Source: a virus (Duplodnaviria; Caudoviricetes). From it: 64,000 nt of DNA. The DNA is taken from the IMG/VR virus record IMGVR_UViG_2863389319_000001; one strand, given 5' to 3'. Shown piece by piece: positions 41,926 through 58,382 of this stretch. Under the pieces are notes generated by a model. The model had not been told where the DNA came from. It saw nothing but the letters and a program-made list of their open reading frames with translations, and ran no database searches. Position 1 is the stretch's first letter; every line of letters begins with the position of its first letter. Made by a program: the position numbers and the translations under genes.

Positions 41926-42072
41926 ATGGTCCTCGAACCCCTCGGCATGGCCGGCGGTGACGGGAACGGCGGGAATGGCGACATGCTTCCCGGCCAGCCG
42001 TGGCCCGTACCAGCCCCGGAACCCCAGCCCGACGGCGGGCCGCCGCCTGGTGACGGGGGCCACCGTAAGTGA
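41926..42072 (+). CDS. 48-aa Gly/Pro/Asp-rich putative RiPP precursor (imiditide/pamtide-like)
   Basis: AAGGGAG RBS; three DG and two NG sites, ends PPPGDGGHRK; stop overlaps methyltransferase start (GTGA). Confidence 0.7.
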   Translation: MVLEPLGMAGGDGNGGNGDMLPGQPWPVPAPEPQPDGGPPPGDGGHRK

Positions 42073-43205
42073 CCGCCACCAATCAGGACCGTCCCGCTGC
42101 GCCGGGGCGGTCCTTCCCTGTCTCCGACCCCTGGGTCGCGGCGTTCGAGGCCGTCCCTCGCGCCCAGTTCCTGCCCGACCTGATGTGGGCACACGACATG
42201 GCCCGAGGCGCCAGCGTCCCTGTCGACCGCACGGCGGACCCGGGCGCCTGGAACGCTGCCGCGCAGGCCGACATCCCGATCGTCACCCAGTGGGACGACG
42301 GGCGGCACCGTGGCAGCCCGCCAGGCACAGTGCCGACCAGCTCGGCGAGCATGCCATCCGTCGTCGCGGCCATGCTGGACGACCTCGACGTGAGCCCAGG
42401 TATGCGCGTTCTGGAGATCGGCGCCGGTACCGGCTGGAACGCCGGGCTGCTCACGCACCGGCTCGGCGGCTCACAGGTCGTCAGCATGGAGGTGGATCCC
42501 GCCGTTGCCGAGACCGCCCGCCAGAACCTGGCTGCCAGCGGCCTCCATCCGACTGTGATCACTGGCGATGGCTATGCAGGCCACCCAGCCGGGGCCCCCT
42601 ACGACCGGATCATCGCCACATGCGGCATGCGGCAGATTCCGCAGGCCTGGGTCGAGCAGCTCCGCCCCGGCGGCATCATCGTGGCCCCCTGGGGGACCCA
42701 CTTCGAGAATGGCGACGCGCTCGTCCGACTGGCCATCTCCCAGGACGGCATCGCGGCTGGCCCTTTTCTGCGGCCGGTGGAGTTCATGAAGCTGCGCGCA
42801 CAGCGTCTCCGCCCACCCCAGCATCCGGCCGAGTTCCCCGGCGACGCCGACACCAGCACCACGACCCTGCGGCTGCCGTTCGGCCCGTGGGAGGCGTTCC
42901 CGTTCGCCGCCGGCCTGCGCCTGGATGGCGTGACCCACGTTGCTGGTCGCCGTGGCGACGAGCAGGCGGTGTGGCTGTACGGGCTCGCCGACCAGTCTTG
43001 GGCGGCCACGGTCTTCCGGGATGGTGTCGACCACGCCACGGTGTGGCAGTCGGGGCCTCGACGGCTCTGGGATGAGATCGAGGCCGCGTATCAGTGGTGG
43101 ACGGCCGTGGGCCAGCCGGGCTTTGAGCGGTTCGGACTGACCGTCGATCAGGATGGCGAGCGGGCATGGCTCGACCATCCCGCCAACCTCGTAAGGGCAA
43201 GGTGA
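42069..43205 (+). CDS. PIMT-like SAM O-methyltransferase with C-terminal WxxxGxP domain
   Basis: VPRAQF, TSSASMP, VLEIGAGTGWNA, GDG, APYDRIIAT, QLRPGG; C-terminal GPRRLWDE...WTAVGQP..FGLTV. Confidence 0.9.
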   Translation: MTATNQDRPAAPGRSFPVSDPWVAAFEAVPRAQFLPDLMWAHDMARGASVPVDRTADPGAWNAAAQADIPIVTQWDDGRHRGSPPGTVPTSSASMPSVVAAMLDDLDVSPGMRVLEIGAGTGWNAGLLTHRLGGSQVVSMEVDPAVAETARQNLAASGLHPTVITGDGYAGHPAGAPYDRIIATCGMRQIPQAWVEQLRPGGIIVAPWGTHFENGDALVRLAISQDGIAAGPFLRPVEFMKLRAQRLRPPQHPAEFPGDADTSTTTLRLPFGPWEAFPFAAGLRLDGVTHVAGRRGDEQAVWLYGLADQSWAATVFRDGVDHATVWQSGPRRLWDEIEAAYQWWTAVGQPGFERFGLTVDQDGERAWLDHPANLVRAR

Positions 43206-43208
43206 CCC

Positions 43209-43376
43209 GTGCAGGGATGGGTGAACCCGAAGTACCGCGAGGCGGTCACCTCCGTCCGGCAACTGCCGCGCACGCCATGGCGTGACGGCAGGCTCCGGCC
43301 CCGCGGCGCCGTCATGGCCGTCGGCAATGCGATCTACGTGGTCCGGCCAGCCGAGGGCAAGCCAACTACGGAGTAG
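43209..43376 (+). CDS. 55-aa hypothetical protein (third gene of PIMT operon)
   Basis: AAGG RBS + GTG; VQGWVNPKY...; not in ORF track. Confidence 0.5.
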   Translation: MQGWVNPKYREAVTSVRQLPRTPWRDGRLRPRGAVMAVGNAIYVVRPAEGKPTTE

Positions 43377-43394
43377 AGCCAGCCCGAGCATGAC

Positions 43395-43429
43395 GAAGGC
43401 GCCCACCGCGACTTGCGGTGGGCGCCTTC
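43395..43429. terminator. Bidirectional terminator-like hairpin
   Basis: 15-bp perfect stem GAAGGCGCCCACCGC-gactt-GCGGTGGGCGCCTTC between convergent genes. Confidence 0.8.
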
Positions 43430-43443
43430 ATCGCTGCCCCCGA

Positions 43444-44223
43444 TCAGCCGGTGCGCGGCCAAGCGGCGGAAGAGTCGCGCTGAACCTGGTACGCCAGCGC
43501 GAATCGCTCGCCTGACATGCGGGTTTCGTTCACCTCAATGGCGATGGTCTCGTCACCGCGCCGGATATGACTGGTACGGGTAACGACGAGGACCGGGATC
43601 GCCTTCGAGATCTTCAGGGCCGCCTGCTCCTCCTCCGTGGGCGAGCGAGTCCAAGCCGCTTCGTCCCAGCTGATCGGCGCCTTGAAGTATTCTTCGGCCC
43701 GGTCATAGATCCCGCCCGGGCCGGGCTTCTCGGCCCCCAGCGCGGGGATCTCTCCGACCAGGGCCACCGGGATGTAGCTGCTAGCGAGTTGGAGGACCTG
43801 CTTCGGCGTGGGCGGCCCCATCCGGCGATCTCGGACGAGGACGTCCTGTCCGCGCGGCACGCCGAGGATGTCGGCGACGTGGTCGGGCGGGACAGCAAGT
43901 CCGCGGGTCGGCGCCTCGATGGCCACCCAGTCTTTTGCGTTCTGATCGAAGAAGTAGCCGATCTCGTCGCGGTAGACCGTGCGGTCCCGGACGACGATGC
44001 GGCTACGCGGACGCTCGCGCACGTAGGCCCCCTGTCGGCCACGGATCTCCACGTAGCCGTCAGCCGCCAGCGCGCGGACGGACTTCATGGCAGTACCCCT
44101 GTGGACACCGTACCGTTCGGCGATCTCCTCCCCTGAGGGCAACTTAGAGCCGGGGCCAAACTCGCCGGCCTCGATCGCCGCCCGCAATTCATCTGCGACA
44201 CGGCGGGTCTGATCCCCGGTCAT
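43444..44223 (-). CDS. GntR/HutC-UTRA regulator (KorSA/TraR-like)
   Basis: ADELRAAIEAGEFGPGSKLPS...YGVHRGT...GAYVR wHTH plus UTRA; divergent from transfer operon. Confidence 0.9.
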   Translation of the reverse strand: MTGDQTRRVADELRAAIEAGEFGPGSKLPSGEEIAERYGVHRGTAMKSVRALAADGYVEIRGRQGAYVRERPRSRIVVRDRTVYRDEIGYFFDQNAKDWVAIEAPTRGLAVPPDHVADILGVPRGQDVLVRDRRMGPPTPKQVLQLASSYIPVALVGEIPALGAEKPGPGGIYDRAEEYFKAPISWDEAAWTRSPTEEEQAALKISKAIPVLVVTRTSHIRRGDETIAIEVNETRMSGERFALAYQVQRDSSAAWPRTG

Positions 44224-44391
44224 CCGTCCTCCTCGCGGTTAGTCATGGCGCGTTTCTTTCTCTTAGGCTATCCCAGAGCACGTGGTGCATGCTACGGTCT
44301 AGCTGTACCAACCAGAACGGCCCCGACAGGTGATAGCGCACCGGTCGGGGCCCAGATCAGCCCACCCTGCGTCAACAGGAAGGCCGGTCCA

Positions 44392-44631
44392 ATGACCGAT
44401 CGTAGTGCCGCTACAAGCCGTAGCACATCCCAGGGGGCCCTTGAAGACCCCAGCTTCACCCCTCCGGTCCCGTCGCCCGCCGATGCGCTTGACGCGGCCC
44501 AGGCCGAACTGAACGCCCTCGCCGCCGGCATCAACGACCGCAGCCTCGACGGAGACCAGCGGTACGACCTCCTGCAGGACATCCAGTCGGCCGCAGGCCG
44601 TCTCGACGAGCTGAAGCGGGGCCCCCAGTGA
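44392..44631 (+). CDS. Hypothetical protein
   Basis: First gene after divergent promoter; GGAAGG RBS. Confidence 0.55.
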   Translation: MTDRSAATSRSTSQGALEDPSFTPPVPSPADALDAAQAELNALAAGINDRSLDGDQRYDLLQDIQSAAGRLDELKRGPQ

Positions 44632-44895
44632 TGCTCGCCGCGCTCCTCATCCTGATCATCATCAGCACCGGCGCCATGTGGCTCTACCACTGCCACGGCC
44701 GCACCTTCGAGCGCAACCCGAAGGACTCGCAGTGAGCGTCGACACCGGCCACACGATGGGCCTGACCCGCGCCGAGATCGCTGCGGCCCTGCGCGGCACC
44801 CCCGCCGACGAACCCGCACCGACCACCAGCTGGTCGTGGGACAAGCCCGACACCCGCCCCGCAGCGTGGGCCGCTTCCGGAGAGGACAAGTAGCC

Positions 44896-45204
44896 GTGCC
44901 CATCACTTTCCACGAACTCATCGCCGCCCACAGCGAGATGCTCGCCCGCATCGCCTGCGGATCGATCGCCACCGAACCCGTCGCGTTCGTTTGCCAGCTC
45001 GGTGAGCTTGTCGACGACTCCGACCTCCGCGACAACCCGAGTTTCGAGGGCACCGCCGAGAGTCTCCGGGCTGCCGTCACGCTCCTCGCTGAGGCCCTCG
45101 ACCGGCCCGCCAGCAGCCAGGCGCAGATCGATTTCCTGCAGGCCGCGGACAAGCACCTGCACGACCTCGCCGCCGACGCGATCGCCCGAAGGAGCAGCAA
45201 GTGA
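44896..45204 (+). CDS. Helical hypothetical protein (paralog of 45977)
   Basis: ELIAAHSEMLA...LAEALD.P...ADKHL. Confidence 0.65.
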   Translation: MPITFHELIAAHSEMLARIACGSIATEPVAFVCQLGELVDDSDLRDNPSFEGTAESLRAAVTLLAEALDRPASSQAQIDFLQAADKHLHDLAADAIARRSSK

Positions 45205-45437
45205 CCACCGAGACCTGGCCCGAGGGCGTGATCGCCCGCTACATGACCATGGTGGGCCTCGCCCTCGCCGACCCCAACATCACCGTTGACCTCATCAACG
45301 ACGGCGGCGAAGCCATCTGCCGCGGCTGCGGCAAGGACTGGCCCAATCCCAACTACCCGTTCACCGTGCGGCAGTGGGCCGAGTCCCACGCCGAGACCTG
45401 CCGAGCCCTGCCCGATCCGAACGGGGCCCAGCGGTGA
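45201..45437 (+). CDS. Small zinc-binding mobile-element protein
   Basis: WPEGVIARYMT...CRGCG...WAESHAETCRALP. Confidence 0.7.
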   Translation: MTTETWPEGVIARYMTMVGLALADPNITVDLINDGGEAICRGCGKDWPNPNYPFTVRQWAESHAETCRALPDPNGAQR

Positions 45438-45558
45438 GCGACCACATCAACGGTGGCTACGGGCAGCCGCTTCAAGCCCCGGCTGGCGGCAACCCACCCC
45501 AGTGCCAGACCAGTCAGCCCACCCCGCCCCCGCAGATCGAGGCCCCGAAGGAGCAGAA

Positions 45559-45828
45559 GTGACCACCTACGAGTACGCGATCACGATCGACATCCCCGGC
45601 CCGCACAAGCCCAACCCGCGCATCCCCGAGCAGACCCAGAACCTGAACGCCACCCGAACCCAGTACGCGTCCGGCGAGGTTGACCTCGCCGACAGCTTCG
45701 ACCCGGCTTCCAGCGCGGACGTGGCCGTTGTCGCCAAGGGCCTCGTCAGCGACGTCTCCGGCCCGAAGTACGCCGGCAAGACCGTCACGGTCCGCGAGCT
45801 CACGCTCACCCCGAAGGAACGGCAGTGA
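45559..45828 (+). CDS. Hypothetical protein
   Basis: AAGGAGCAGAAGTGA junction. Confidence 0.55.
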   Translation: MTTYEYAITIDIPGPHKPNPRIPEQTQNLNATRTQYASGEVDLADSFDPASSADVAVVAKGLVSDVSGPKYAGKTVTVRELTLTPKERQ

Positions 45829-45976
45829 ACGTCAACGTCACCTGGCACCCGGCCGACGATCCGGGCGGCCGCCCCGCCACTGAGCAGGAGATCACCGATT
45901 TCCTCGCCAGCATGACCGCTCTCGACGGCACCAACTACGTCGACATCTACCAGCAGACCATCGAGGAGGGCTGGGA

Positions 45977-46264
45977 ATGACCGCGAAGATCACCACGACG
46001 GCGGAGCTGATCGCCAATCACGCCGACATGCTCGCCGACCTCTTCGGGGAACCGGCCAGCGCCAATCCCACCGAGCTCATCAGCCAGCTCGAAACGGTCG
46101 CCTCCGTGTACGAGGCGACCTCGATGACCACCGACGCGGCCGACGCCCTCAGCAAGGCCGCCAACTACCTGGCGGAAGCCCTTGAAGACCCCCGCCGTGA
46201 GGCGCAGTTGATTCGCCGAGCCGACAAGCAGCTGTGCGTCATCGACGCGATGGCGCTGGCCTGA
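45977..46264 (+). CDS. Helical hypothetical protein (paralog of 44896)
   Basis: ELIANHADMLA...LAEALEDP...ADKQL. Confidence 0.65.
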   Translation: MTAKITTTAELIANHADMLADLFGEPASANPTELISQLETVASVYEATSMTTDAADALSKAANYLAEALEDPRREAQLIRRADKQLCVIDAMALA

Positions 46265-46588
46265 AAGGAAACCCTGATGCGCGAGCACGTCACCCTCGAC
46301 GACGACACGCCGTTCACCGAGACCGATTTCGAGCAGGTTCGGGAGCTCAGCGTCGCTGTGCACCACGCCGACCAGGACATCCCGAGGCTGGCCGACGAGG
46401 CCATCTACCGGCTTACCGGCCTGTAGGTGAGTGCCTGCCACGAGCATGCCGAGGACGACCGCTCAGTCGCCACCGCCCTCGGCAGGCCCGCGCCTGCACA
46501 CCACGACGACCCGCAAGTCCTGACCAACGCGACCGACTTGATCCGAATCCTCGGCTACCAGCCCGAAGCCGCTTGAAAGGCCACCACC

Positions 46589-46768
46589 ATGACCGCCGAG
46601 CACATCACCCCTGTCACCTACGAGATCACCACCCCCGGCCGCACGATCACCGGCAACGCCACCGTCTTCGGCTCGATCGAGCACCGCGAGACCGTCGCCG
46701 CCCTCACCCAGCACCACCACCTCGACCTCGCCGAGATCACCGTCCAGCTCAGCACCATCGCGGCGTGA
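46589..46768 (+). CDS. Small hypothetical protein
   Basis: GAAAGG RBS + ATG. Confidence 0.45.
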   Translation: MTAEHITPVTYEITTPGRTITGNATVFGSIEHRETVAALTQHHHLDLAEITVQLSTIAA

Positions 46769-46938
46769 CGGTCGCCCCCGACGGCGCCGGCTACCACAAC
46801 CTCGCCGGCGCCCCCGTCACCACTCAGCTCTACCTCGTCGGCCAGTACACCTGCGGCGGCTGCGGCCTCACCGAGACAGTTACCACTGAGCAACTGGGCG
46901 GCGCTCAACCACGCCAAGACCTGCGAAGGGGAACCCCA

Positions 46939-47133
46939 ATGATCAACCGTGAGAAGTACCCGCTGCTGGGCGCCGCGGCCGATGCCCTGGACGCCGGCGA
47001 CTCCAAGCGTGCTGACGCCCTGGTCCGTGCCGCCGAGATCGCGGGCACCCCCGCTGAGAAGGCTGCACTGGCGACCACCGACAGGCTCATCGCAGCCGCT
47101 GACCAGCTCATCGCGGGCACGGCCGACCAGTAA
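46939..47133 (+). CDS. Ala-rich small protein
   Basis: GAAGGGG RBS + ATG. Confidence 0.5.
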   Translation: MINREKYPLLGAAADALDAGDSKRADALVRAAEIAGTPAEKAALATTDRLIAAADQLIAGTADQ

Positions 47134-47162
47134 TCACCATCATCAGAAACCAAGGAGCCGAA

Positions 47163-47582
47163 ATGACCGAGGCCTTCGAAACCGTCCGCCGCACAGCAGA
47201 CGCAGTGGTCGTCACAGCCGATGGCCGCAATCTGCTGCTGATCGAGCGCGACTGGCCGCCCTTCGAGGGGGCCTGGGCCCTCCCCGGCGGCCACGTAGAC
47301 AGGGGGGAAACGAGCCGCGCCGCAGCCGCCCGCGAGCTGCTCGAGGAAACCGGAATCCTCCTGGCCACCAACGAGCTGGCCCAGATCGGCGTCTGGGACC
47401 AGCCTGGCCGGGACCCGCGCGGCAGGTACGTCACCGTCGCCTACCTCGCCGTCGTCCCGGCTGGCACCCCGATCATCGCCGGGGACGACGCCCGCGCCGC
47501 CCGCTGGTGGCCGATCAACTCCCTGCCGCCGCTCGCATTCGACCACGCGGACATCATCGCCGCCGCCCTCACCCGCCGCTAA
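47163..47582 (+). CDS. Nudix hydrolase (Pif/MutT-like)
   Basis: Nudix box GGHVDRGETSRAAAARELLEETGI; RDPRG; LAFDH. Confidence 0.93.
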   Translation: MTEAFETVRRTADAVVVTADGRNLLLIERDWPPFEGAWALPGGHVDRGETSRAAAARELLEETGILLATNELAQIGVWDQPGRDPRGRYVTVAYLAVVPAGTPIIAGDDARAARWWPINSLPPLAFDHADIIAAALTRR

Positions 47583-47627
47583 CCAGCCAACCGCTCCACT
47601 AGGGGCCCCGATCGCCACGAGGACACC

Positions 47628-48617
47628 GTGAAGTACCGCGCCGAAGATCGAACCCGCCTGATCCCGCACACCATCGACGGCATCACCGAGATGGTCCCGG
47701 AGGACTACACCGTCCACGTGCCCGTCCCACCCCATGACTGGGACCGCATCATCCTCACCGCCGCCACTGCGGCCACCGCGGCCATCCTCACGGCGTCCGT
47801 CGTCTGGTCCACCAGTAGCGTCGGCGCGCTTCTCGGCCGGTCTGTCGAATCCGCCATCGCCTACGGCGCGGCTAGCGTCTTCGACCTCGTCTGGATCGTC
47901 TGTATGGCCGTCGAATGGCTGAACCGCTATAACCCCCGCGGCGCCGTCCTCCCCCGCCGCGCCGGCCACATTGCACTCGTGATCGCTATGGCCGCGGTGT
48001 GCACCAACGGCTGGCTCACTGGGGGCGTCGCCCCCGGCATCATCGGCGCGGCCGTCTCCGCCCTCGCTAAGGGCACCTGGACCATCGTCATGAAGCACAC
48101 CGCCAAGCCGCTGGACCCGCTCACACAGGGCTGGGTGGACCGGCAGATGTCCGAAGCAGGCGGCCGCCTCGCCCTCGGCTCCGTCCGCCGCCAGGTCGCG
48201 CGGGCCGACGGACAGTACGCCGCCCAGATCGCCGCCCTCACCCCGGACGGGCCGGACACGGACAACGGACAGCCGGACACCGTGTCCGGGACAGTCCGGG
48301 CAGCTGTCCGCGCCGCCCTCACCACCATGCCCGGCGCCGCCCCCGACGAGATCGTCCGACAGCTGGCCCACGCCGGGATCCACACCGATGAGGACACCGT
48401 CCGACGCCTGTCCGGACAGCAGGACAGCACGTCAGGGAAGGTGCTGCGTCTCACCGCCACCGCCGGGCCGAGCATCGCGGACACCATCCGGACACAGGTA
48501 TCCGCAGGCGTGTCCGACCCGGTCGCTGTCCTCGCCCAAGTCCGGACTGTCCACGGATCCGATGTCCGCGCGGACACCGTCCTGCGGACACTGCGCCGGA
48601 TCTCCCGCACCGCCTGA
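47628..48617 (+). CDS. SpdB-like membrane spread/transfer protein
   Basis: PHTIDG...PHDWD, four TM segments, AYGAASVFDLVWIVCMAVEW, repeat-rich C-terminus. Confidence 0.75.
   Translation: MKYRAEDRTRLIPHTIDGITEMVPEDYTVHVPVPPHDWDRIILTAATAATAAILTASVVWSTSSVGALLGRSVESAIAYGAASVFDLVWIVCMAVEWLNRYNPRGAVLPRRAGHIALVIAMAAVCTNGWLTGGVAPGIIGAAVSALAKGTWTIVMKHTAKPLDPLTQGWVDRQMSEAGGRLALGSVRRQVARADGQYAAQIAALTPDGPDTDNGQPDTVSGTVRAAVRAALTTMPGAAPDEIVRQLAHAGIHTDEDTVRRLSGQQDSTSGKVLRLTATAGPSIADTIRTQVSAGVSDPVAVLAQVRTVHGSDVRADTVLRTLRRISRTA
48209..48590. repeat. Dense array of CGGACA/TGTCCG hexamers in the spdB 3' end
   Basis: About 15 exact copies on both strands in about 380 bp, plus near-copies. Confidence 0.8.
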
Positions 48618-48654
48618 ACGACCCGAACCGCCACACGCTGACGAAGGAAAGATC

Positions 48655-49224
48655 ATGACCGGCAACGACTCGATCTACAATGACGCGGCGTTCGATATCA
48701 CGAGCGTCCCGTCATGGAAGTCCCCGCCACTGCACGGCGCCTATGCCCCGAACGCGAAGCTCTCCTCGCGGGCGAAGGCCGGGATCGCCGCAGGCGGGGT
48801 CATCCTCGCCGCCACCGGCATGATCGCCTACTCGGACTACGCGTCGTCCCAAGCTGACGCCCATGTGAAGGCCGCTCAGATCGCCCTGCAGCAGTCCCAG
48901 CTGGACCTGCAGCGCCAGCAGCAGGAGGCCGCGCAGGCCGCTACCGCCGGCCAGGAGACCCAGGCCGAGCAGGCCCGGCGTCAGGCCGTCCAGGACTGCG
49001 TTGCGAAGGCCTCCGGGGACAGCATGAACGCGGTCTCCCAGTGCTCCGCCGCCTTCCCGGCGATCACCTCGCCCGGCATGTCGACGGCCTCCGACACGGT
49101 CGCCAGCAGTAAGTCCTCGGCGGCCGGATCCGACGTCGGGCTCGTCGTTCTCGGCTCCGTCGGGGCGGTCATGGCGGTGGGCTGGGCGAAGAAGCGGTTC
49201 GGCCACCGGGCTCCTTCTCTGTAA
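48655..49224 (+). CDS. Two-TM coiled-coil protein (transfer accessory)
   Basis: N- and C-terminal TM helices, Gln/Ala coiled coil, Cys pair. Confidence 0.65.
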   Translation: MTGNDSIYNDAAFDITSVPSWKSPPLHGAYAPNAKLSSRAKAGIAAGGVILAATGMIAYSDYASSQADAHVKAAQIALQQSQLDLQRQQQEAAQAATAGQETQAEQARRQAVQDCVAKASGDSMNAVSQCSAAFPAITSPGMSTASDTVASSKSSAAGSDVGLVVLGSVGAVMAVGWAKKRFGHRAPSL

Positions 49225-49321
49225 CACGATGTGACCTCCCCCCACCCGCCTCCCGCTCGCAAATGAGCCCCCAATGCCACCCCTTGGCTGTTCAAATGCC
49301 GTCTCGGGGGATTCTCCGGCC

Positions 49322-49339
49322 GGGTGGGGGGTGGGTGGG
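49322..49339 (+). other. G-quadruplex motif GGGTGGGGGGTGGGTGGG with upstream complementary arm at 49238-49248
   Basis: Four G-tracts with 1-nt T loops; CCCCCCACCCG is the reverse complement of 49321-49331. Confidence 0.6.
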
Positions 49340-49365
49340 TGACTACCAGCAGTGAGGTATTCGAG

Positions 49366-51429
49366 ATGACTACGACCATCGAACCACCCCCGCAAACCGA
49401 CTCCGGAGGCGACCGCAGGCCCGCCGAGCCGAGCAGCCCGGAGGCCCGAACGGGCACCCTCGCGGGCATTCTCACCCCCGTCCAGCCGGCGCGACCGACC
49501 GCCCACCTGGGCACCACCGCCGCCCTCGCGCAGGACTTACCTGCCGCCGAAGCGGCGACCCCGGGCGGGGTCGCCGGCCGCGGGAAGACCGGCTCGGGCG
49601 ATCGGCGGGACGGCCCGATCGGCGCCCTCGTACGGGCCTTGGCCGGCCGCCTGGGCCGCACCGGCACCGCCACCTCGGTCAAGCAGAGTCACGACATCAA
49701 AGAGACTCGGCTCTCCGGGAACTCGACCTCCGCCACCCACGCGAACAAGTCCGACCGCACCGCCAAGCATGAGAGTGGCTCGCAGCACCGGTCCAACCGT
49801 GACGCCAAGATCGCCGACCTCAACAACAAGGTCCACCAGCACCACAACAGGAACCAGCAGGACCACAAGCGGGCCAGCACATCTGACGCCAAGACCTCCC
49901 ATGCGAGGCAGGCCAAGGACGACAACTCGTCCAGGCACAACCGGGACAGCAAGGACAACCGGGACGCCAAAGCGTCCGACGCGAAGAGCTCCAAGAACGA
50001 CAACGCGTCGAAATCCGCGCAGGACGACAAGAACCACCGCGACGCCCGCACCGACGGGAAGACAGCAAAGACCAACAGCACCGACACCAAGTCCTCGGAC
50101 ACGAAGACCACGAGCGCGAAGAAAGACGACGCGGCAAGGAACGACAACTCCCAGCGCAGCAACCAGGACGACCGGAAGACCGGCAGCACGGACACGAAGA
50201 ACACCCGAACCGACGTACCGGCGTACAGCGCCCGGGACGCCGGCCCGTTCGACTCCGCCCCCACCAAGCGACCCAAGGGCGGCGGACCGGACGAACGCGG
50301 CTCAGCCAAAAATCCAGCCCGCAAGATCGACCTGGGCAAGACCAGTGACGCCCCGTCCGACCCAGCGAAGGAAGCCGGTCCGGACCGACCGGCGAAGAAG
50401 GACACCGAACCGGCCGACCGCGACAAGCAGGACCAGGCGTCACAGGGCCCGCGCCCCCGCACCCAAACCTCCCGAGAGGTCGGCTACCGCGACGGAACAC
50501 GGGCCGCCGCAGCCGTCGGGCACGTCCGGGCGTGGCGGGACGGCACCCGCGACGGCTGGGACGACCGCACCACCGCCGATCTGGCCGAGAGGAAGAAGAT
50601 GGACGCCACCAAGACCCGCAACGAGGACCGCCGCCTGCTGAAGCCCGACAAGGCCCCCATCGCGCCGAAGACGGCCCCAGCCGCCGGATCAACCGCCGAC
50701 ATGACGAAGACGACCGAGCCCCCGAAGCAGCCCACGCTCACCATCCCACCGAAGCCGACGACCCCGCCCAGGCCAACGGTCCCGCCGAAGCCAACCGTCC
50801 CGCCCACCATTCCGGCCGGGACAGGCGCACAGAAGAAGACCGCCCCGGCACCCGGGGCAGTAACGACGAAGACCACAGCAGCAACACCCCATTCAGGACA
50901 GACCACCGGGCCGACGCCGCCCGGCCCCAAGTCGCCCACAGCACCCGAGCCGACAGCAGTGACAGCAGTGAAAGTCGGCCCCGATGCCGTGGAGTTCACC
51001 GCACCGGACCGGCACGGCGTCGCGGCGCAGCACACCCTCAGCCGTGGCGAGGTCCGCAGCCTCAGGCAATTCGAACAACGCCTGGAACAGAAGGGGCAGA
51101 CGCTGGCGAAAATCGGCGAGGACAACAAAACCGCCCAGCAGCACGCGCTCGCCCACGCGATGCGCGCCCAGCAACTGGCCGAAGCAGCCAAGGAGATGCA
51201 GGGCGGGATGGCGCTGGTCGGCGTGCTACTCCGGCTGGCCGAGTGGGCCACCGCGCTGCGCTATAAGACCGATGAGGTCGCCAAGCGCACCACGCGCAGC
51301 GCCGAGGCCGTACGCGTGGTTGCCGCCAACGCCCAGACCCGACACGGGGTCATCTACAAGGCCGTCGCCGACTCCCCACTCACCACCCCAGCCGAGCGGG
51401 CCTTCTACCAGGACAAGCAGGGCAGCTGA
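49366..51429 (+). CDS. Large low-complexity protein with C-terminal TraA-like helical domain
   Basis: D/N/K/S/H/R repeats, Pro/Thr linker, C-terminal HGVIYKAVADSP...AERAFY. Confidence 0.7.
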   Translation: MTTTIEPPPQTDSGGDRRPAEPSSPEARTGTLAGILTPVQPARPTAHLGTTAALAQDLPAAEAATPGGVAGRGKTGSGDRRDGPIGALVRALAGRLGRTGTATSVKQSHDIKETRLSGNSTSATHANKSDRTAKHESGSQHRSNRDAKIADLNNKVHQHHNRNQQDHKRASTSDAKTSHARQAKDDNSSRHNRDSKDNRDAKASDAKSSKNDNASKSAQDDKNHRDARTDGKTAKTNSTDTKSSDTKTTSAKKDDAARNDNSQRSNQDDRKTGSTDTKNTRTDVPAYSARDAGPFDSAPTKRPKGGGPDERGSAKNPARKIDLGKTSDAPSDPAKEAGPDRPAKKDTEPADRDKQDQASQGPRPRTQTSREVGYRDGTRAAAAVGHVRAWRDGTRDGWDDRTTADLAERKKMDATKTRNEDRRLLKPDKAPIAPKTAPAAGSTADMTKTTEPPKQPTLTIPPKPTTPPRPTVPPKPTVPPTIPAGTGAQKKTAPAPGAVTTKTTAATPHSGQTTGPTPPGPKSPTAPEPTAVTAVKVGPDAVEFTAPDRHGVAAQHTLSRGEVRSLRQFEQRLEQKGQTLAKIGEDNKTAQQHALAHAMRAQQLAEAAKEMQGGMALVGVLLRLAEWATALRYKTDEVAKRTTRSAEAVRVVAANAQTRHGVIYKAVADSPLTTPAERAFYQDKQGS

Positions 51430-51430
51430 C

Positions 51431-51805
51431 ATGGCAAATGGACTGACATACCGCGACCTGGTGCGCCAGGTGAAGCAGCTGTCGAAGGAGATCGCCCGGG
51501 ACACCTCCGCACACCGGGCACTGGCCGAACTGCTCAAACAGGAGGCTCAGGACACCCTGCGGGTCGCCGAACAGATCTCCACACTCAAGGTCGACTCCGC
51601 GACTGTTGCCGAGACCTCCGAGGTGGCGCGGCTCATGAACGGCCTCTCAGAGGCGGCCGTCTCCTACGCCACAACGGCCGAGGAAGCTGGCCGACAGGCC
51701 CAGGCCGCGGGCGAGCAGGCCCGCACCGACCACAACGGCATCCAGGAGGCCAACGACCGCTCCCCGGTCGAAATGGCCGACCGCACTTGGTACACCCAGG
51801 AGTAG
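51431..51805 (+). CDS. TraA-like small helical protein
   Basis: 124 aa helical hairpin, LTY start, HNGIQEANDRSP...ADRTWY; directly before traB. Confidence 0.65.
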   Translation: MANGLTYRDLVRQVKQLSKEIARDTSAHRALAELLKQEAQDTLRVAEQISTLKVDSATVAETSEVARLMNGLSEAAVSYATTAEEAGRQAQAAGEQARTDHNGIQEANDRSPVEMADRTWYTQE

Positions 51806-51809
51806 AACC

Positions 51810-54071
51810 ATGACCACCAACACCACCCCCACCGCCGAAGCAGTGCGCAGCCCGACCGTCGAGAAGCGACTCGCGATCGCCGAGATCGCCGCCCCACTCC
51901 TGTGCGCAGGCATCATGCCCCTTCTCGACCCCCAGGCCGCGACCACCATGTCGACGTTCCTCGCCGCGCCAGCCCTCATCGCCAGCGCCAACGCCAGCGG
52001 ACTGCTGAACGACCGACTACTGGACGACATCCCCGGCGGCGACCTCCTGCGCGCCCACCGCCGCCCCATGTTCATCTCCGCCATCGCCACCGCGACCGCC
52101 GCCGCCACCGCCACCCTCGACGGCCAGGCCGGCATCGACCAACTCGTCGCCGGCTGGATGACCATGCCCTCCCTCCCAGGGCTCGTGTCCGTCGCCTGGC
52201 TCGGCGCCGTCGGGTTCGTCGGCTTCTCCCTGCGACGCGTCATCGCCGGCCACCGCCGCCCCCATAAGGCCGCCCCCAGCGCGGCCCCTGCTGCCAACCC
52301 GGTTGACGCTGCCGTGCGCGACATCCTGCACGGCTGGGACGCCCACATCTCCGGGGAGAACGGCGCCCATCCCGGCCAGCACCTGACCCTCACCGCCCAC
52401 GGACCCGAGATGTGGGAGGGCGTCATCGAAGCCGCCCCCGGCAGGCCGGTCACCGTCACCGGCGAGACCGTCTCCGGCGTTTACCGGCTCCCCGTCGACT
52501 GGATCTCGATCACCGAGGGGCCGCACACCAGCTCCCGCAACATCCGGGTCCGCACCGTCGCCCCGACCATCGAAGAGGCGCAGTACAGCACCCTGGAAGC
52601 GCGCTGGCTGCGTCGCGTCGCCCACAAGGCCGGCTGCATGCCCGGCACTCACCTCGAAGGCGCCGTCCCCGACCCGGCGACTGGCGGTGTCGCCGCTTGG
52701 ATCGTCGCTGACGACGACACCGACGCGATCACGGTCCCCGACCAGTACCGGCTCGCCGGGGCCCTGCACACCACCACCCTGCTCGTCGCGGTGGAACCCA
52801 CGAGCAACCCGCGCAAGGCCAAGTTCCGCCTGATGGAGCGCTCTCCACTGCAGGACGGACGGCCGCTGCCCGGCCCCGGGGCCCTCCTCGCCAACAAGAA
52901 CGGGTTCATCCAACTCGGTGGCGGCATCTCCGGGCGCCCCGCCCGCCTGCAGATTTTCGACCCCACCGTCGGTGCCCAGCACATCCTGGTCGCCGGCGTC
53001 ACCGGCTCCGGCAAGGGCGGCGTCCTCCAGCTGATCTGCCTGGCCTACCACGTCAACAAGGTCGCGATCCTTTACGCCGACCCCAAGGGCTCTTCCAACC
53101 CGGCAGTGGCCCGGATGGCCGCCTACGCCGGCTGCGGCAAGGACGGAGCGATGGGCACGCTGCGCCTTGCGTACGCGATCCTCCTGCACCGCATCGCCGA
53201 GTCCGCCGCCACCGATGCCAAGAACTTCGTGGCCAGCGCCGAACGACCGTACGTCGCTGTCCCGCTGGATGAGTTCGCGCAGGTCCTCGGCGAGAAGTCC
53301 GAGCACATGAAGGAGGCGTCGTTCATCGTCGCTGCCATCGCCGAGCAGGGCCGGTCGCTGGGCATGGCCATGGTGCTGTGCGGCCAGATCATGAACCTCG
53401 ACAAGATGGGCTCCGACACCAGTATCCGCGACAACATCTTCTACGGCGGGGCCCTGGTCCTCCTCCGCTCTGACAGCGCGCAGAAGCAGCGTGTTGACCT
53501 GCCCGACGCGTTCGCCGGCATCGACCCGTCCAAGATCCCCGCCTTCTGGAAGAGCGACGCAGAGGAAAGCCTGATCTACGACCCGACCGTCCCCGAAGAC
53601 GACCCCAGTCGCACCTTTGGCGTCGGCTACACGGTCGGCCCCGATGAGCAGGCCGAGATGATGCGCGTCTGGATCCAGGAGACCGCTGACGGTCTGTTCG
53701 ACCCGGCCGACATTGTCTACCCCGCCGACTTCCCCGATTGGGGCGACCGAGAGGCGATCGCCGCCACCCCCGTCGGCCCGGCGGCTGTCGACTACGACGA
53801 GGATGGCGACGACTCAATGTGGGCGCCCAGCGCCCCTGTTCAGTTCACGAAGGAGCCAACCGCCCAGGAGAAGATCCTCACTGTGCTGGAGGACCGTCGG
53901 GACCCGATCGGCGTTGAGATCGGCTATCTGCACCTCGACCAGATCACCCAGATGACCGGCGTCGCCCGCAAAACCGTCGAGAACACCCTCAGCCGCCTCG
54001 CCAAGGACGGCACTGTTGTCCGCAACGCGGAGGCGGCCGGCGAGTACGGCCTGCCACTCCCTCCTGACTGA
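51810..54071 (+). CDS. traB: FtsK/SpoIIIE-type conjugal DNA translocase TraB
   Basis: N-terminal TM region, HILVAGVTGSGKG Walker A, VPLDEF Walker B, GRSLGM, C-terminal wHTH (RKTVENTLSRLAKDG). Confidence 0.85.
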   Translation: MTTNTTPTAEAVRSPTVEKRLAIAEIAAPLLCAGIMPLLDPQAATTMSTFLAAPALIASANASGLLNDRLLDDIPGGDLLRAHRRPMFISAIATATAAATATLDGQAGIDQLVAGWMTMPSLPGLVSVAWLGAVGFVGFSLRRVIAGHRRPHKAAPSAAPAANPVDAAVRDILHGWDAHISGENGAHPGQHLTLTAHGPEMWEGVIEAAPGRPVTVTGETVSGVYRLPVDWISITEGPHTSSRNIRVRTVAPTIEEAQYSTLEARWLRRVAHKAGCMPGTHLEGAVPDPATGGVAAWIVADDDTDAITVPDQYRLAGALHTTTLLVAVEPTSNPRKAKFRLMERSPLQDGRPLPGPGALLANKNGFIQLGGGISGRPARLQIFDPTVGAQHILVAGVTGSGKGGVLQLICLAYHVNKVAILYADPKGSSNPAVARMAAYAGCGKDGAMGTLRLAYAILLHRIAESAATDAKNFVASAERPYVAVPLDEFAQVLGEKSEHMKEASFIVAAIAEQGRSLGMAMVLCGQIMNLDKMGSDTSIRDNIFYGGALVLLRSDSAQKQRVDLPDAFAGIDPSKIPAFWKSDAEESLIYDPTVPEDDPSRTFGVGYTVGPDEQAEMMRVWIQETADGLFDPADIVYPADFPDWGDREAIAATPVGPAAVDYDEDGDDSMWAPSAPVQFTKEPTAQEKILTVLEDRRDPIGVEIGYLHLDQITQMTGVARKTVENTLSRLAKDGTVVRNAEAAGEYGLPLPPD

Positions 54072-54173
54072 ACTACCGCCAGGCCCCGGCGCGGTGCACC
54101 AGAATGGATCCCTGACCCGAGGGGGACCATCCGTGACACCGCGCCATCCAGAAAGCCCGCTCCCACCGGAGGC

Positions 54174-54614
54174 ATGATGGATCAGAACCTCGACCAGGCG
54201 CTCGCCGATCTGGCGGCGGACATCGCCCGCACCGACGGCAAATCCTCGCTCTACCTAGCAGTCGACGGCGTCACCGTTGCCGGTCTCGCGGCGCTCGCCT
54301 CCGCCAACGTCCCCGTCGCAGGCCTGGTGCTCGCCGGCACATCCGGCGCCGCCACCGTCGCCGCAGCCACACTCGGGATCCGCGCCGCCCGGCCAAACCT
54401 CGGCGGCGACGATGCAGAGGGCTGGCCGCGCTGGGCGAAGGCCGAGCCCGAGGAGATCCTGGCCGACCTTGCCGAGGACCGGCGCCTGGCCAAGATCCGG
54501 AAACTGTCCCAGATCTGCAAGCGCAAGATGAGGCACCTGCAATGGTGTGCTGACTGCACGCTGGCTGGGCTCATCGCCCTCGCGCTCGCCGCCGTCGTTA
54601 CCATCGCCAGCTGA
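54174..54614 (+). CDS. Pycsar-effector-like (DUF5706) membrane protein
   Basis: DIARTDGKSSL, TM pair ending ARPNL, LSQICKRKM, terminal TM. Confidence 0.75.
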   Translation: MMDQNLDQALADLAADIARTDGKSSLYLAVDGVTVAGLAALASANVPVAGLVLAGTSGAATVAAATLGIRAARPNLGGDDAEGWPRWAKAEPEEILADLAEDRRLAKIRKLSQICKRKMRHLQWCADCTLAGLIALALAAVVTIAS

Positions 54615-54626
54615 TGGGAGTGACCC

Positions 54627-55253
54627 GTGTTACCGCGCCATCCCGCACGACGCCGTACTACCCGCCGGAACCGCCGTCGGCCCGGCCTCACCTCACCGCC
54701 CGTCATCCTGACCGCCGGGGTGCTCGTCGCGATCGGCTCGCCCCTGGTCGGGATCCCCATCCTGCTCCTGGCCGTCGCAGGTTTGTGGCTCATGAGGCCC
54801 GGCCGTACCCGGTACAGGATCCGCGCACCGCGCAGGCCAGCACGCATCTCTCGGCCCCGCACCGCCAGCATCAGCGGCTACCAGGCCATGACCCCCGGCC
54901 AGTTCGAACACGCGCTCGCGGATCTCTGCCGACGCGACGGCTGCACCCAGGTGCGCGTCGTCGGCGGAGCCGGGGACCTGGCCGCAGACGTACTCGCCAC
55001 CACCCCCGATGGTCGCAAACTCCTCATCCAGGCCAAGCGATTCGGACCCAACACCACCGTCGGCTCCGGCGATGTCCAAAAGGTCAACGGCACCTACCGC
55101 GACATCCACCACGCCCAGCTCGCCGCGATCGTCACCACCAACCGATTCACCAAAGACGCCGAAGCCCTCGCCCGCCGCGTCGGGATCCGCGCCTACGACC
55201 AGCACAGGCTCGCAAGTTGGGCGAGCCGCACCGGGCCCGCGCCCTGGCAGTGA
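54627..55253 (+). CDS. Mrr-like restriction endonuclease with N-terminal TM
   Basis: QFEHALADL...GGAGDLAADV...IQAKR...VTTNRFTKDA. Confidence 0.85.
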   Translation: MLPRHPARRRTTRRNRRRPGLTSPPVILTAGVLVAIGSPLVGIPILLLAVAGLWLMRPGRTRYRIRAPRRPARISRPRTASISGYQAMTPGQFEHALADLCRRDGCTQVRVVGGAGDLAADVLATTPDGRKLLIQAKRFGPNTTVGSGDVQKVNGTYRDIHHAQLAAIVTTNRFTKDAEALARRVGIRAYDQHRLASWASRTGPAPWQ

Positions 55254-55406
55254 CAAGCTGGTCTGCATGAACGACTGCACCGCCACCGGCACCATCCGCC
55301 TCGGCGACGGGGACATCGCCGTCATCTGCAACCTCGCCCCGCATCAAGGCGACCAACGCCACGACCTCGTCCACGGCGACTGGACCAGCACACCCGAGGA
55401 GTAGAC

Positions 55407-55850
55407 GTGACCGACGACCTGGTGGCGTTCCTGCGCGAGCGCCTGGACGAGGCTGAAGCCGTGGCCAAAAAGGACATTTGGGCGGCCGACAACGCAACCA
55501 CCGGCAACTGGCGCGCCCACTACGGCGAGAACCTGCCCTACTCGCTGATCAAAGCGGGCGACTCCGTCCTCATGCGCGTCGAGTCCGAGCAACACCAGGC
55601 CGACGTGCTGCTCGCCGCCCGCTTCAAGCCGGACACGGTGCGCGCGCGGGCCTGCCTCGTACTGGCCGAGGTCGAGGCGAAGCGGAGCCTCATCGACCGG
55701 TACGAGAACCACCGAGTCGCCCATGACCACCACGTCGGCGGCATCCTGACGAAATACCTCGTCGCCGAACTACGCACTGCGCTCCGAGCACTCGCCCTCC
55801 CATACCGCGAGCACCCGAACTACCGCAGCGAATGGGCACCCGACGCCTGA
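55407..55850 (+). CDS. DUF6221 family protein
   Basis: DDLVAFLRERLDE...VLAEVEAKRSLID...LRALALPYREHPNYRSEWAP. Confidence 0.85.
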   Translation: MTDDLVAFLRERLDEAEAVAKKDIWAADNATTGNWRAHYGENLPYSLIKAGDSVLMRVESEQHQADVLLAARFKPDTVRARACLVLAEVEAKRSLIDRYENHRVAHDHHVGGILTKYLVAELRTALRALALPYREHPNYRSEWAPDA

Positions 55851-55856
55851 CCGGAG

Positions 55857-55885
55857 TTGACAAACGCCCGGTCCGGGCGCAAACT
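55857..55885 (+). promoter_or_regulatory. Sigma70-type promoter with palindromic spacer
   Basis: TTGACA-N17-CAAACT; spacer holds CGCCCGG-T-CCGGGCG. Confidence 0.6.
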
Positions 55886-55911
55886 CCGTGATTGTCTGGA
55901 TCTTCTTGTCG

Positions 55912-55941
55912 AAAGGGTCGCCCAAGCGGGTGGCCCTTTTT
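55912..55941 (+). terminator. Intrinsic terminator/attenuator in the leader of the late region
   Basis: AAAGGGTCGCCC-aagc-GGGTGGCCCTTTTT. Confidence 0.7.
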
Positions 55942-55959
55942 GCATGCCCGGAGGTGTCC

Positions 55960-56241
55960 ATGGCCCGGCTCGTCACTGACAAGATCGCATCCCTCTACAC
56001 CGGCCATCCCGCCTCGAAGATCCGCCAGTGGGGCCTTGAGGGCCGCATTACCCGGTACGTCGACGAGTCGCAGCGCCGCGGCGGCATCCGCTACGACCTC
56101 GACGAACTGCACAGCGAGCGGCAGGACTACGAGGGCGGCCCGATCATTCGCGGCAAGACCCCGGCGATGCCGACGCCTCGCCGCGGCACCGTCGTGACGA
56201 CCCGCGAGTTGCGACTGCCGTACGGGCGCCTCGCCGCCTAA
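55960..56241 (+). CDS. Xis/MerR-like winged-HTH protein
   Basis: GGAGG RBS; TGHPASKIRQWGLEGRI...RYDLDEL. Confidence 0.7.
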   Translation: MARLVTDKIASLYTGHPASKIRQWGLEGRITRYVDESQRRGGIRYDLDELHSERQDYEGGPIIRGKTPAMPTPRRGTVVTTRELRLPYGRLAA

Positions 56242-56396
56242 GCTCCCGCCGGCCCGCACCCCCCGCGGGCGTCTGGCGGGACGGCCCGCGCGTCCCGAGG
56301 GTGGCGCGCGGAGCCCACGGGCCCCGGTGGCTGTCCGGCCGGACGAGAGCTGACGCCGGCCGCCGGGGCCCCACAACCCTCAAGGGAGGAGACGCC

Positions 56397-56765
56397 GTGG
56401 TCACCTGCCTCTGGTGCGGACGCCGCCTGCCCGCCGACTGGGACGGCGAGTACTGCTCCACCAGGTGTGCGCTCCTCGACGCACGCGAGGGGGGCCTGAT
56501 ATCGGACGCGATCCTGACCTGCCTGAACTGCCGAGCCACGAAGCCCGAACCGACCGGCACCCCGACCGACTTCTATCCGTCCGAGCACTGTGGCGAGTGC
56601 CCGCCTTGGTGCTGCGAGGACTGCGGGCAGATGTCATCGGCGGACAAGCTCTGCTCCTGCTGGATCGTGCTCGCTGACCTGCCATTCGCCGACGTGAAGG
56701 CCCTGTTCGCAGCCGACGGAACCTTCAACATCGGCGCCCCCGGCACACAAGGGACCGGCGCTTGA
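56397..56765 (+). CDS. Cys-rich zinc-binding protein
   Basis: CLWCG..YCSTRC, CLNC, CGECP, CEDC. Confidence 0.6.
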   Translation: MVTCLWCGRRLPADWDGEYCSTRCALLDAREGGLISDAILTCLNCRATKPEPTGTPTDFYPSEHCGECPPWCCEDCGQMSSADKLCSCWIVLADLPFADVKALFAADGTFNIGAPGTQGTGA

Positions 56766-56947
56766 CCTCGCACGATGATCCCGCCCGTGCCCTCGACGCC
56801 CCGTTCACGCTGCCCGACGACTGGGACCCGATCCCCGGCACCTGCTCCCGCTGCGGAACCGACGCCTGGCTGGGCGAGACCCGCTGGTGGCACGACAAGG
56901 AGCCCTGCCGATCGCGCGGGCGCACCGCCGACTTCCTGCCCGACTGA
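56762..56947 (+). CDS. Small zinc-ribbon protein
   Basis: CSRCG; TTGA coupling. Confidence 0.45.
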   Translation: MTSHDDPARALDAPFTLPDDWDPIPGTCSRCGTDAWLGETRWWHDKEPCRSRGRTADFLPD

Positions 56948-57145
56948 CCCTCATCAGGAGCGCACCCCCGTGACTTCCTTCACCGCCGCCTGGCCCCGCT
57001 CGCAACGCCGCGCCGCATCCCGCAAGCTCTCCCGCCAGTACGCGTTCTACAACGGCCCCGCGCCCCGCCACGAACCCGCCCGCGACCAGTCCTGCCACGT
57101 GCACCACCGGCAGGCACCATGCAAGCGCTGCGCCGAGGCCAAGTC

Positions 57146-57484
57146 GTGATCACCCTGGACTTCTGCCCAGCCACCCCATGCCCAGGCCACGACTGCCCCG
57201 ACTATCAGGCTCAGAGGCGCCGCGAACGCACCCTCGGACTGGCCTTGCACGTTGACTCCGGCCTCACCGCAGAAGAGGCGCAGGTCGAGAGGCTCCTGCG
57301 CCGGGCCCTGCAGTCATCGCATCCGACCACGTCAACGGGCGTGGCCCACCACATGCCGGACGCGCCCTTCCAGGTACATACCGTCGCTGCCGGGGACGGG
57401 TCCACGATCTACGCGGCCGTGTACTGCGGCGATCAGCCGGTCGATGAGCTCCTGGCCAAGTCGCCGGTCTATGTTGCGCCATAA
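57146..57484 (+). CDS. Hypothetical protein
   Basis: GTGA coupling with upstream small ORF. Confidence 0.45.
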   Translation: MITLDFCPATPCPGHDCPDYQAQRRRERTLGLALHVDSGLTAEEAQVERLLRRALQSSHPTTSTGVAHHMPDAPFQVHTVAAGDGSTIYAAVYCGDQPVDELLAKSPVYVAP

Positions 57485-57686
57485 GGCCGCCCGCTCTTCT
57501 GATCCGCTACGTCGCCGACGTCCACGACAACACTGGCTGCCGCCGGACCCTCCTCGTCACGGGAAGCATCCTCGTCGCGGCCATGGCCCCAGCGGCGTCG
57601 CCATGTCGGTCGACCGAGCCGCTGGCCGCGCCTACCGAAGGCGCCACCTCAAGCGCTAACCAACCCTCACCCTCAAGGAGTTCGCC

Positions 57687-57968
57687 ATGTCCCTCGCAGA
57701 CGATTACAAGGCGTTCGTCGCCAAGCTGAAGGCCGCTGAGAGCCACCTGGCCGAGGAGGCCGAGAGCTTCTGGCAGCGCCTCTTCGGCGACGGCAAGCAA
57801 CTCGCCGGCGAAGCCAAGCAGGACGAGATGCAGGTCGCGCAGGCTGCCGAGCCGGTCGTCGCCGAGGCGAAGACCGACGCTGAGAAGCTCGCCACCGAGG
57901 CTGTCACGGACGCCAAGGACGCGACCGCCCCGGCCGCACCCGAGCCGCCAGCCACCCCTGCAGCGTGA
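57687..57968 (+). CDS. Ala/Glu-rich small protein
   Basis: AAGGAG RBS; strong codon bias. Confidence 0.7.
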   Translation: MSLADDYKAFVAKLKAAESHLAEEAESFWQRLFGDGKQLAGEAKQDEMQVAQAAEPVVAEAKTDAEKLATEAVTDAKDATAPAAPEPPATPAA

Positions 57969-57999
57969 CCCGATCCGTCCCGGCCCGGGGAGGTAGCCC

Positions 58000-58368
58000 A
58001 TGGCGCTCCGCAACGTCGCCAACTGGGAACTCGCGGTCGGCTCCCAGTCCTCCCTGCAGTTCGTGTTCACCCAGCCGAGCGGCGCCCTCTACAACATCAC
58101 CGGGCTGAGTTGGGAGTTCAGGGTCCGCACCGACCCCACCGACACGTCCACCGCGCCCCTGATCGAGATCACCCAGACTGGGAACGCCCAGGGCCTGATC
58201 ACCGCCAATACCTCGGCCTCCACCGTGCTCCTCACGCTCAACCCGGCCGCCACGCAGACCATGGCGGCCGCCACCTACGCGTGGGCCCTCTGGTCGAACC
58301 CCGGCACCACGACCGCCACCCAGTGGGTCGGCGGCAGCTTCCGCCTGGACCCGGTCGTCCAACCCTGA
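58000..58368 (+). CDS. Beta-sandwich virion protein (BppU/LtfC-like adaptor)
   Basis: GGAGG RBS; Thr-rich beta pattern YNITG...TYAWALW; precedes tailspike-like gene. Confidence 0.55.
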   Translation: MALRNVANWELAVGSQSSLQFVFTQPSGALYNITGLSWEFRVRTDPTDTSTAPLIEITQTGNAQGLITANTSASTVLLTLNPAATQTMAAATYAWALWSNPGTTTATQWVGGSFRLDPVVQP

Positions 58369-58382
58369 CCAGGGGGTGCACC

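Follow-up and report, generated by a model that had tools for sequence, protein, structure and literature searches.

Can a single genetic element of a mycelial actinomycete travel both in virions and by conjugation? Phages, as a rule, are regarded as one means of moving genes between cells and conjugative elements as another. The question is raised by a 64,000-nucleotide stretch of viral DNA (IMG/VR record IMGVR_UViG_2863389319_000001; Duplodnaviria, Caudoviricetes), referred to here as the window, in which a conjugation (tra) block of the Streptomyces TraB type (43444-55253) lies among the genes of a tailed phage. The window corresponds to G000:C1:1440236-1504235, on the 7.73-Mb chromosome contig (C1) of a 9.57-Mb genome in four contigs, and the host is assigned to Kitasatospora. 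The original prediction, made from the letters of the window, was of an integrating phage that could spread in both ways. On the evidence presented below, a probability of about 0.6 is given to the reading that this phage spreads by virions and by hyphal conjugation of double-stranded DNA (dsDNA), using a complete-looking plasmid-type module placed between its replication and packaging genes.

The boundaries of the element are marked by a 126-bp perfect direct repeat. One copy, the attL core, is located at C1:1439949-1440074 (window -286 to -161, just left of the window) and the other, attR, at C1:1536213-1536338 (window-equivalent 95978-96103), a spacing of 96,264 bp. The left copy constitutes the final 126 bp of a 3-hydroxyacyl-CoA dehydrogenase gene, and a scan of the window and of four flanking loci gave no tRNA gene. 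A tyrosine integrase is encoded on the minus strand beside attL, where the element begins on the left (1-1227; Pfam Phage_integrase, 1.2e-9, with a SAM-like N domain). The flanks of the element are 2.7 kb (G005) and 1.7 kb (G008) apart in same-genus genomes, compared with 97 kb here. The G+C content of the DNA is ~69% and genes were therefore called by third-position G+C (GC3); 145 proteins are predicted for the element. All of the features of a temperate tailed prophage were found, namely the integrase, att repeats, terL, portal, tape measure, tail proteins and lysin, and the block is missing from relatives. The claim that the module sits inside a prophage was borne out by the att repeats that bound the element and by the presence, beyond the right end of the window, of genes for the tape measure, Dit, minor tails and a GH25 lysin. 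Family searches also confirmed the GntR/UTRA, NUDIX, TraB, PycTM, Mrr_cat, terL and portal assignments.

The possibility was considered that two elements are present, an actinomycete integrative and conjugative element (AICE) or integrated plasmid that is nested in the prophage or in tandem with it and excises alone, or that the arrangement is an assembly chimera. AICEs often accrete in tandem where they share att sites (PMC9513070). However, the whole element has a single PF00589 match, the tyrosine integrase at 1-1227, which extends the earlier remark that no second integrase is visible near the tra block. No serine or resolvase-type recombinase (PF00239) and no ParA partition gene (AAA_31) were matched anywhere in the element. 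Inside the element, the 126-bp core is matched over 15-18 bp at best, no more than chance would give, and direct repeats flanking the tra block are likewise at chance level only, so that the block has no att sites or direct repeats of its own. The same junctions are present in UViG_3300043759_000016, a metagenomic viral contig of independent origin, which argues against an assembly chimera. Logan contigs that contain the stretch came from two sequencing runs only, both of one sample, with no RNA run listed among them. Contigs from the source sample tile the junction region piecewise and without conflict, with no single piece spanning it; being from the same sample, they are weak evidence. Two nested elements are essentially excluded by these sequence comparisons, and the alternative as a whole, chimera included, is very improbable. 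Because there is one att pair, one integrase, no internal att copy and phage genes on both sides of the block, the element is read as a single, complete-looking temperate siphovirus-type prophage of 96,264 bp with the tra block internal to it. The pairing that the original prediction proposed to search for, traB and terL in one att-bounded element, is found here within 96.26 kb and with a single integrase. Each refuting condition that had been named and that sequence can address turned out in favour of the earlier reading, and the Walker A and B motifs of TraB are kept; the earlier reading is supported.

The central gene of the block (51810-54071, plus strand) encodes TraB, a predicted membrane-anchored, FtsK-like dsDNA translocase of 753 residues. 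Hydrophobic segments occur at about residues 20-40 and 121-141, and the C-terminal helix-turn-helix signal (residues 685-739) is weak (HTH_Crp_2, E 0.0099; ORF80_fam, 1e-4). The Walker A (GVTGSGKG) and Walker B (LDE) motifs are conserved across plasmid, phage-plasmid and phage copies. The protein matches 173 Streptomycetaceae plasmids, the best match (72%) being to a linear plasmid of Kitasatospora indigofera. When TraB was compared by tblastn with 50,697 phage records, no match was obtained at E<=1e-5, that is, no deposited cultured phage carries this TraB; megablast of 43444-63999 against the same records also gave no match.

The genes around traB make up a long operon with a divergent regulator. 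The regulator (43444-44223, minus strand) is of the GntR/UTRA (GntR/HutC) type (Pfam GntR, 1.5e-17; UTRA, 1.5e-10) and is KorSA/TraR-like by family and position; its divergence from the tra operon is also seen in the K. indigofera plasmid and in the plasmid pSLE1. An imperfect palindrome, GGTCTAGCTGTACC, in the intergenic region (44290-44320) resembles HutC/DasR-type operators and is a possible operator for the GntR/UTRA protein. A gene for a PIMT/PCMT-type methyltransferase (42069-43205; PF01135, 2e-31) lies immediately left of the regulator gene. The operon, on the plus strand, begins with about 10 small open reading frames (44393-47133), identified by GC3-based calling and lacking Pfam matches; one of them, 45201-45437, encodes a protein with 35-37% identity to a small protein of the pSLE1 tra operon. 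These are followed by a Nudix hydrolase gene (47163-47582; Pfam NUDIX, 4.3e-24), in the position of pif in pSAM2-type elements, a 64%-identical copy of which adjoins TraB in a Kitasatospora humi contig. The next gene (47628-48617) encodes a membrane protein of 329 residues (phrog_35187, 4e-73). The earlier label, SpdB-like, is retained for it less firmly than the others, on the strength of ~4 N-terminal hydrophobic segments, its position and an Atlas language-model lead to the SpdB_N, DUF2637 and HTH_SpdB_C clusters (scores 0.85-0.93). Both the GntR-family Kor/TraR-type repressor gene and the SpdB-like gene adjoin tra.

Between the SpdB-like gene and traB lie three conserved tra-operon genes (48655-51805, plus strand), the products of which are 52-61% identical to counterparts that precede TraB in Kitasatospora plasmids and contigs and in the viral contig L017. 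The first (from 48655) encodes 189 residues with two hydrophobic segments, the second (49324-51429) an Ala/Thr/Pro-rich protein of 701 residues with a conserved C-terminal domain, and the third (51461-51805) a helical protein of 114 residues. The second and third had been described as two TraA-like proteins. Their kinship with plasmid tra-operon genes stands, at 60% identity to the equivalents in Kitasatospora plasmid tra operons, but the TraA identity is a weak lead (Atlas score 0.77) and BLASTP detected no similarity between the 701-residue and the 114-residue protein that would indicate a shared domain. Downstream of traB, the block ends with a PycTM-type membrane protein of the Pycsar effector family (54174-54614, plus strand; Pfam PycTM, 4e-11), which has a counterpart on pSLE1 (36% identity), and a protein with an Mrr-type restriction endonuclease domain (54627-55253, plus strand, GTG frame; Pfam Mrr_cat, 2.8e-22). 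Copies of the latter, 50-66% identical, are found directly 3' of TraB in viral contigs L017 and L122-L125. An ATG frame for the same gene (54614-55270) was rejected as a spurious Arg/Pro-rich reading with no family match; it is the GTG frame that gives Mrr_cat.

A TraB translocase would require a cis-acting locus of transfer (clt), and a candidate was located by repeat count within the SpdB-like coding sequence. The hexamer CGGACA occurs 15 times in 382 bp (48209-48590), 10 times on one strand and 5 times on the other, where ~0.3 copies are expected, and its 61 copies across the 64-kb window equal the chance expectation. In five related tra loci, the corresponding part of the gene order also holds a cluster of 7-8-mers, with a word that differs from locus to locus: GGGCGCT (eight copies) in the viral contig related in tra and terL, GTGAGACC (nine) in Kitasatospora humi, CTGCAACG (seven) in strain CB02056, TGAGCCG (six) in pSLE1 and GCGCTCG (eight) in a 111-kb provirus. 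A fixed position combined with element-specific words is the expected look of a clt built of TraB recognition repeats.

How the two routes might operate can be outlined. The reading joins what is observed, that is, the anatomy of the element, its single att pair, the intact ATPase motifs and the recurrent association of TraB with packaging genes, to functional steps (expression, loading, transfer, spread, limitation and integration) that we infer throughout. Excision by the integrase would yield circular dsDNA. Particle formation, the virion route, would draw on the replication genes of the phage (DnaB helicase and an iteron origin) and on the terS, terL, portal, tail and lysin genes. For mating, the divergent tra operon would be switched on once the GntR/UTRA repressor is released; TraB would form a membrane pore, bind the cis site, for which the CGGACA cluster in the SpdB-like gene is the candidate, and pump the unprocessed circle into a neighbouring hypha. 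The SpdB-like protein and other small membrane proteins would then spread the circle across septa. Pif of pSAM2 limits redundant transfer, and the Nudix protein would act in the same way. The incoming genome would either integrate at attB or enter the lytic cycle. If this is true, an integrating phage leaves its host as naked dsDNA through the TraB pore, escaping the limits set by receptors and capsid size, and a whole mycelium could be lysogenised from one entry event. The distinction between prophage and integrative and conjugative element in genome annotation would also be blurred in the Streptomycetaceae, the main antibiotic producers. With its mapped att sites and candidate clt, the element is a directly testable system.

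The module may instead function mainly in spread and establishment within one mycelium, across septa, rather than in conjugation between strains. In Streptomyces, plasmids depend on both Spd-type membrane proteins and TraB to spread within the mycelium, as is known from pSVH1 and pIJ101; the host forms a mycelium, and the module is located among early genes, upstream of the late operon. However, the same proteins also carry out primary transfer in plasmids, and the sequence separates the two roles in no way. A restriction to intramycelial spread is considered unlikely.

The pairing of TraB with virion genes was also found repeatedly elsewhere. The nearest true relative identified is UViG_3300043759_000016, an IMG/VR metagenomic viral contig that is a 23.5-kb fragment, with the ends, integrase and GntR gene off the contig. 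It has the order tra genes-TraB-Mrr-terL-portal as here, with identities of 52-60% for the three tra genes, 65% for TraB, 64% for Mrr, 37-45% for several small genes, 83% for terL, 60% for the portal fusion and 58% for the next head gene. A second relative, UViG_3300044946_000428, is a 111-kb provirus rated complete, in which terL (67%), portal (65%) and head genes (51-76%) are similar. About 10 kb upstream of its terL are a GntR/UTRA gene and then a gene for a TraB-like ATPase of 682 residues, which is distant (25-27% identity; Walker A GASGTGKS). In the 76-kb contig UViG_3300030739_000009 (L123), TraB (68%) and Mrr (50%) are accompanied by a Phage_portal gene 19 kb downstream, and the contig has no match to this terL. 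The 85-kb contig UViG_3300044691_000591 (L124) carries TraB with the same Mrr-type gene after it and is without this terL type; TraB identity in L123 and L124 is 66-68%. The plasmid-phage precedent cited in the original prediction, pZL12, was likewise found to represent a family with TraB next to terL: in ~18 IMG/VR contigs and many 85-94-kb Streptomyces plasmids, pSLE1 among them, TraB (41-47%) lies 1-3 kb upstream of terL (32-42%).

The same comparisons bear on the possibility that the tra block is a passenger, captured from a Kitasatospora plasmid and having no role in phage transmission, whether as neutral cargo, as a source of defence genes (PycTM, Mrr) or in decay. In a sample of 134 same-genus genomes, TraB copies of 64-75% identity, the closest ones, were present in 15; this terL was absent from all of these genomes, and in each the contig with TraB is without a Terminase_6C gene. 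A quick tree of TraB (FastTree, LG+gamma; reading frames picked by similarity) placed the window copy as sister to that of the Kitasatospora humi contig, nested among same-genus copies, with the copy of the related viral contig branching at the base of the Kitasatospora clade. The tra module is plainly of plasmid type and has been exchanged between plasmids and phages. However, every gene of the block is intact and TraB retains its ATPase motifs; the same order is found in a diverged phage (TraB 65%, flanking genes 37-65%, terL 83%), and analogous modules occupy the same slot in the 111-kb provirus and in the pZL12 family. Intact genes and a recurrent order and slot indicate retention rather than accident, and a mere passenger is held to be somewhat less probable even than a role confined to one mycelium.

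Several observations nevertheless weigh against spread by both routes. The profile scores of TraB are low: 26.3 bits against Pfam FtsK_SpoIIIE, where the cut-off is 24, and a partial match (6e-10, residues 333-567) to NCBIfam plasmid_TraB that is below the equivalog cut-off, so that family membership rests mainly on BLAST similarity to annotated, predicted plasmid proteins. Its Walker A motif ends in GKG and not GK[ST], although this is a feature of the whole family. The CGGACA cluster is only a candidate for clt. No AICE-type Rep was seen in Pfam scans, which covered the larger genes with a profile set that did not include RepSA; the phage module would therefore have to supply replication for transfer. 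In the quick tree, the two TraBs carried by phages of the terL lineage do not group as sisters; the module therefore appears to have been traded with plasmids and may have been acquired recently, as a passenger. In a comparison of three viral contigs with terL of 66-79% identity, each taken with 10 kb upstream of terL, two are fragments (L024 and L028; related terL, 72-79%) in which the available sequence contains no TraB; the module would therefore be accessory, not universal, in the terL lineage. Finally, entry into a non-immune recipient might trigger lysis by zygotic induction, which would limit the benefit of transfer.

Beyond this one element, a broader proposal can be made tentatively, at odds a little short of even. 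Conjugative prophages of mycelial actinomycetes may form a recurrent, undescribed class in which plasmid-derived TraB, Spd and clt functions would provide a receptor-independent second route of infection and a means of mycelial spread, the module having been swapped repeatedly between plasmids and at least 3-4 phage backbones. In a literature search of partial coverage, which is not proof of novelty, no description of a chromosomally integrated TraB-carrying phage was found.

The concept of dual spread by virions and transfer has a tested plasmid precedent, pZL12, known since 2010. pZL12/phiZL12 is a plasmid-phage of Streptomyces sp. 9R-2 (Zhong et al. 2010, J Bacteriol 192:3747, cited through PMC4487206 and PMC3583192), and pSLE1 is described in PMC4487206 as homologous and syntenic to it. 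Like the element, pZL12 and pSLE1 (NZ_LN831788.1) are large (85-95 kb) temperate tailed-phage genomes of Streptomycetaceae with a GntR gene divergent from a tra operon that ends in TraB upstream of the terminase, and with genes for a PycTM protein, DUF6221 and a single-stranded DNA-binding protein (SSB). The combination that characterises the pZL12 type, virion genes and a TraB transfer locus, is present here in one att-bounded element. However, pZL12 and pSLE1 are autonomous circular plasmids with ParAB, whereas the element is integrated at a 126-bp att site, with one tyrosine integrase and no ParA. Only 11 of the 145 proteins of the element match pSLE1, at 29-64% identity (TraB 42%, terL 33%), and its backbone is therefore different; TraB is separated from terL by 8 kb, compared with ~1 kb in pZL12 and pSLE1. 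The element thus appears to share the dual strategy of pZL12 while departing from its family in two features, autonomous maintenance and backbone homology.

Conjugative plasmids of the Streptomycetaceae (SCP2, pSVH1 and pIJ101 type) have the same succession of GntR, small genes, a Spd-like gene, three conserved genes and TraB as the element. The closest sequenced relative of the tra block is on the linear plasmid NZ_CP108209.1 of Kitasatospora indigofera NBC_00106, in which TraB is 72% and its neighbours 60% identical and synteny is kept. This plasmid has ParAB and replication-relaxation genes and is without virion genes, whereas the module of the element sits in a phage genome. With AICEs such as pSAM2 the element shares the integrase, att sites, KorSA-like GntR repressor, Pif-like Nudix protein and, as predicted for it, TraB-type transfer from an integrated state. 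AICEs measure 9-24 kb, have replication genes of the RepSA, RepAM or Prim-Pol kind and lack virion genes (PMC3218068). The element, in contrast, with its 96 kb, its DnaB-type replication module of phage origin and its complete set of virion and lysis genes, falls outside the AICE definition. It is also integrated in a protein-coding gene, whereas AICEs are integrated in a tRNA gene.

The phage genes on either side of the tra block are as follows. To the left, the replication module (34518-36892, minus strand) consists of a DnaB-type helicase gene (34518-35918; DnaB_C, 1.2e-92) and an upstream gene for a protein of 325 residues. Eight GGGTCACC(T) repeats of alternating orientation (36385-36537) lie within the latter, just upstream of the helicase gene; the 8-mer has 16 copies in the element, 8 of them within ~150 bp, and the cluster is probably the phage replication origin, formed by iterons within the initiator gene. 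Other genes left of the block encode a Gp3-like protein, an exonuclease, an SSB and a C5 methylase.

To the right, the original prediction had a late promoter, terS, terL and portal following the tra block. Both terL and the portal gene are present, but not immediately after it: terL lies ~8 kb 3' of the block with ~10 genes between, including those for a DUF6221 protein (55407-55850, plus strand; 1.2e-20) and a tailspike-like protein; small open reading frames also occur in this region (55407-61631, plus strand). The late promoter proposed there corresponds to a promoter-like sequence, TTGACA-N17-CAAACT with a palindromic spacer, and a hairpin (55857-55945) that are visible on inspection, but a scan of 43000-62500 for consensus promoters and terminators gave nothing above shuffled sequence, leaving the assignment unsupported. 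A gene in the right place for terS (61603-62172, plus strand; phrog_645) was found, and position is what identifies it as a terS candidate. It is followed by terL (62075-63760, plus strand; Terminase_6C, 5e-18, and Terminase_6N) and by a gene for a portal-NUDIX-MuF fusion of 1047 residues (63782 to window-equivalent 66925, L008:3782-6925, plus strand), with Phage_portal, NUDIX and Phage_Mu_F on one product. Its counterparts in two related viral contigs are similarly long open frames, of 1308 and 1120 residues. Farther right, beyond the window, are a candidate capsid gene and genes for a major-tail-like Ig protein, the tape measure, Dit, minor tails and the GH25 lysin, and an HTH_17 and XRE/Aca2-like gene pair is located near attR.

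The tailspike-like protein (58383-61631, plus strand) is a right-handed beta-helix protein of 1082 residues (Beta_helix, 3.7e-12; phrog_29706, tail spike, 3e-85). Its gene sits upstream of terS and terL, not among the tail genes, and contains three internal repeats spaced 117 bp apart (60356-60656). A second pectate-lyase-like protein is encoded in the tail region (L006:1724-3295). Just beyond attR, two small genes (L006:12207-12871, window-equivalent 96207-96871) are 78-84% identical to unlinked sites in the genomes G007 and G008; absent from the empty sites, they may be a separate small mobile unit adjoining att.

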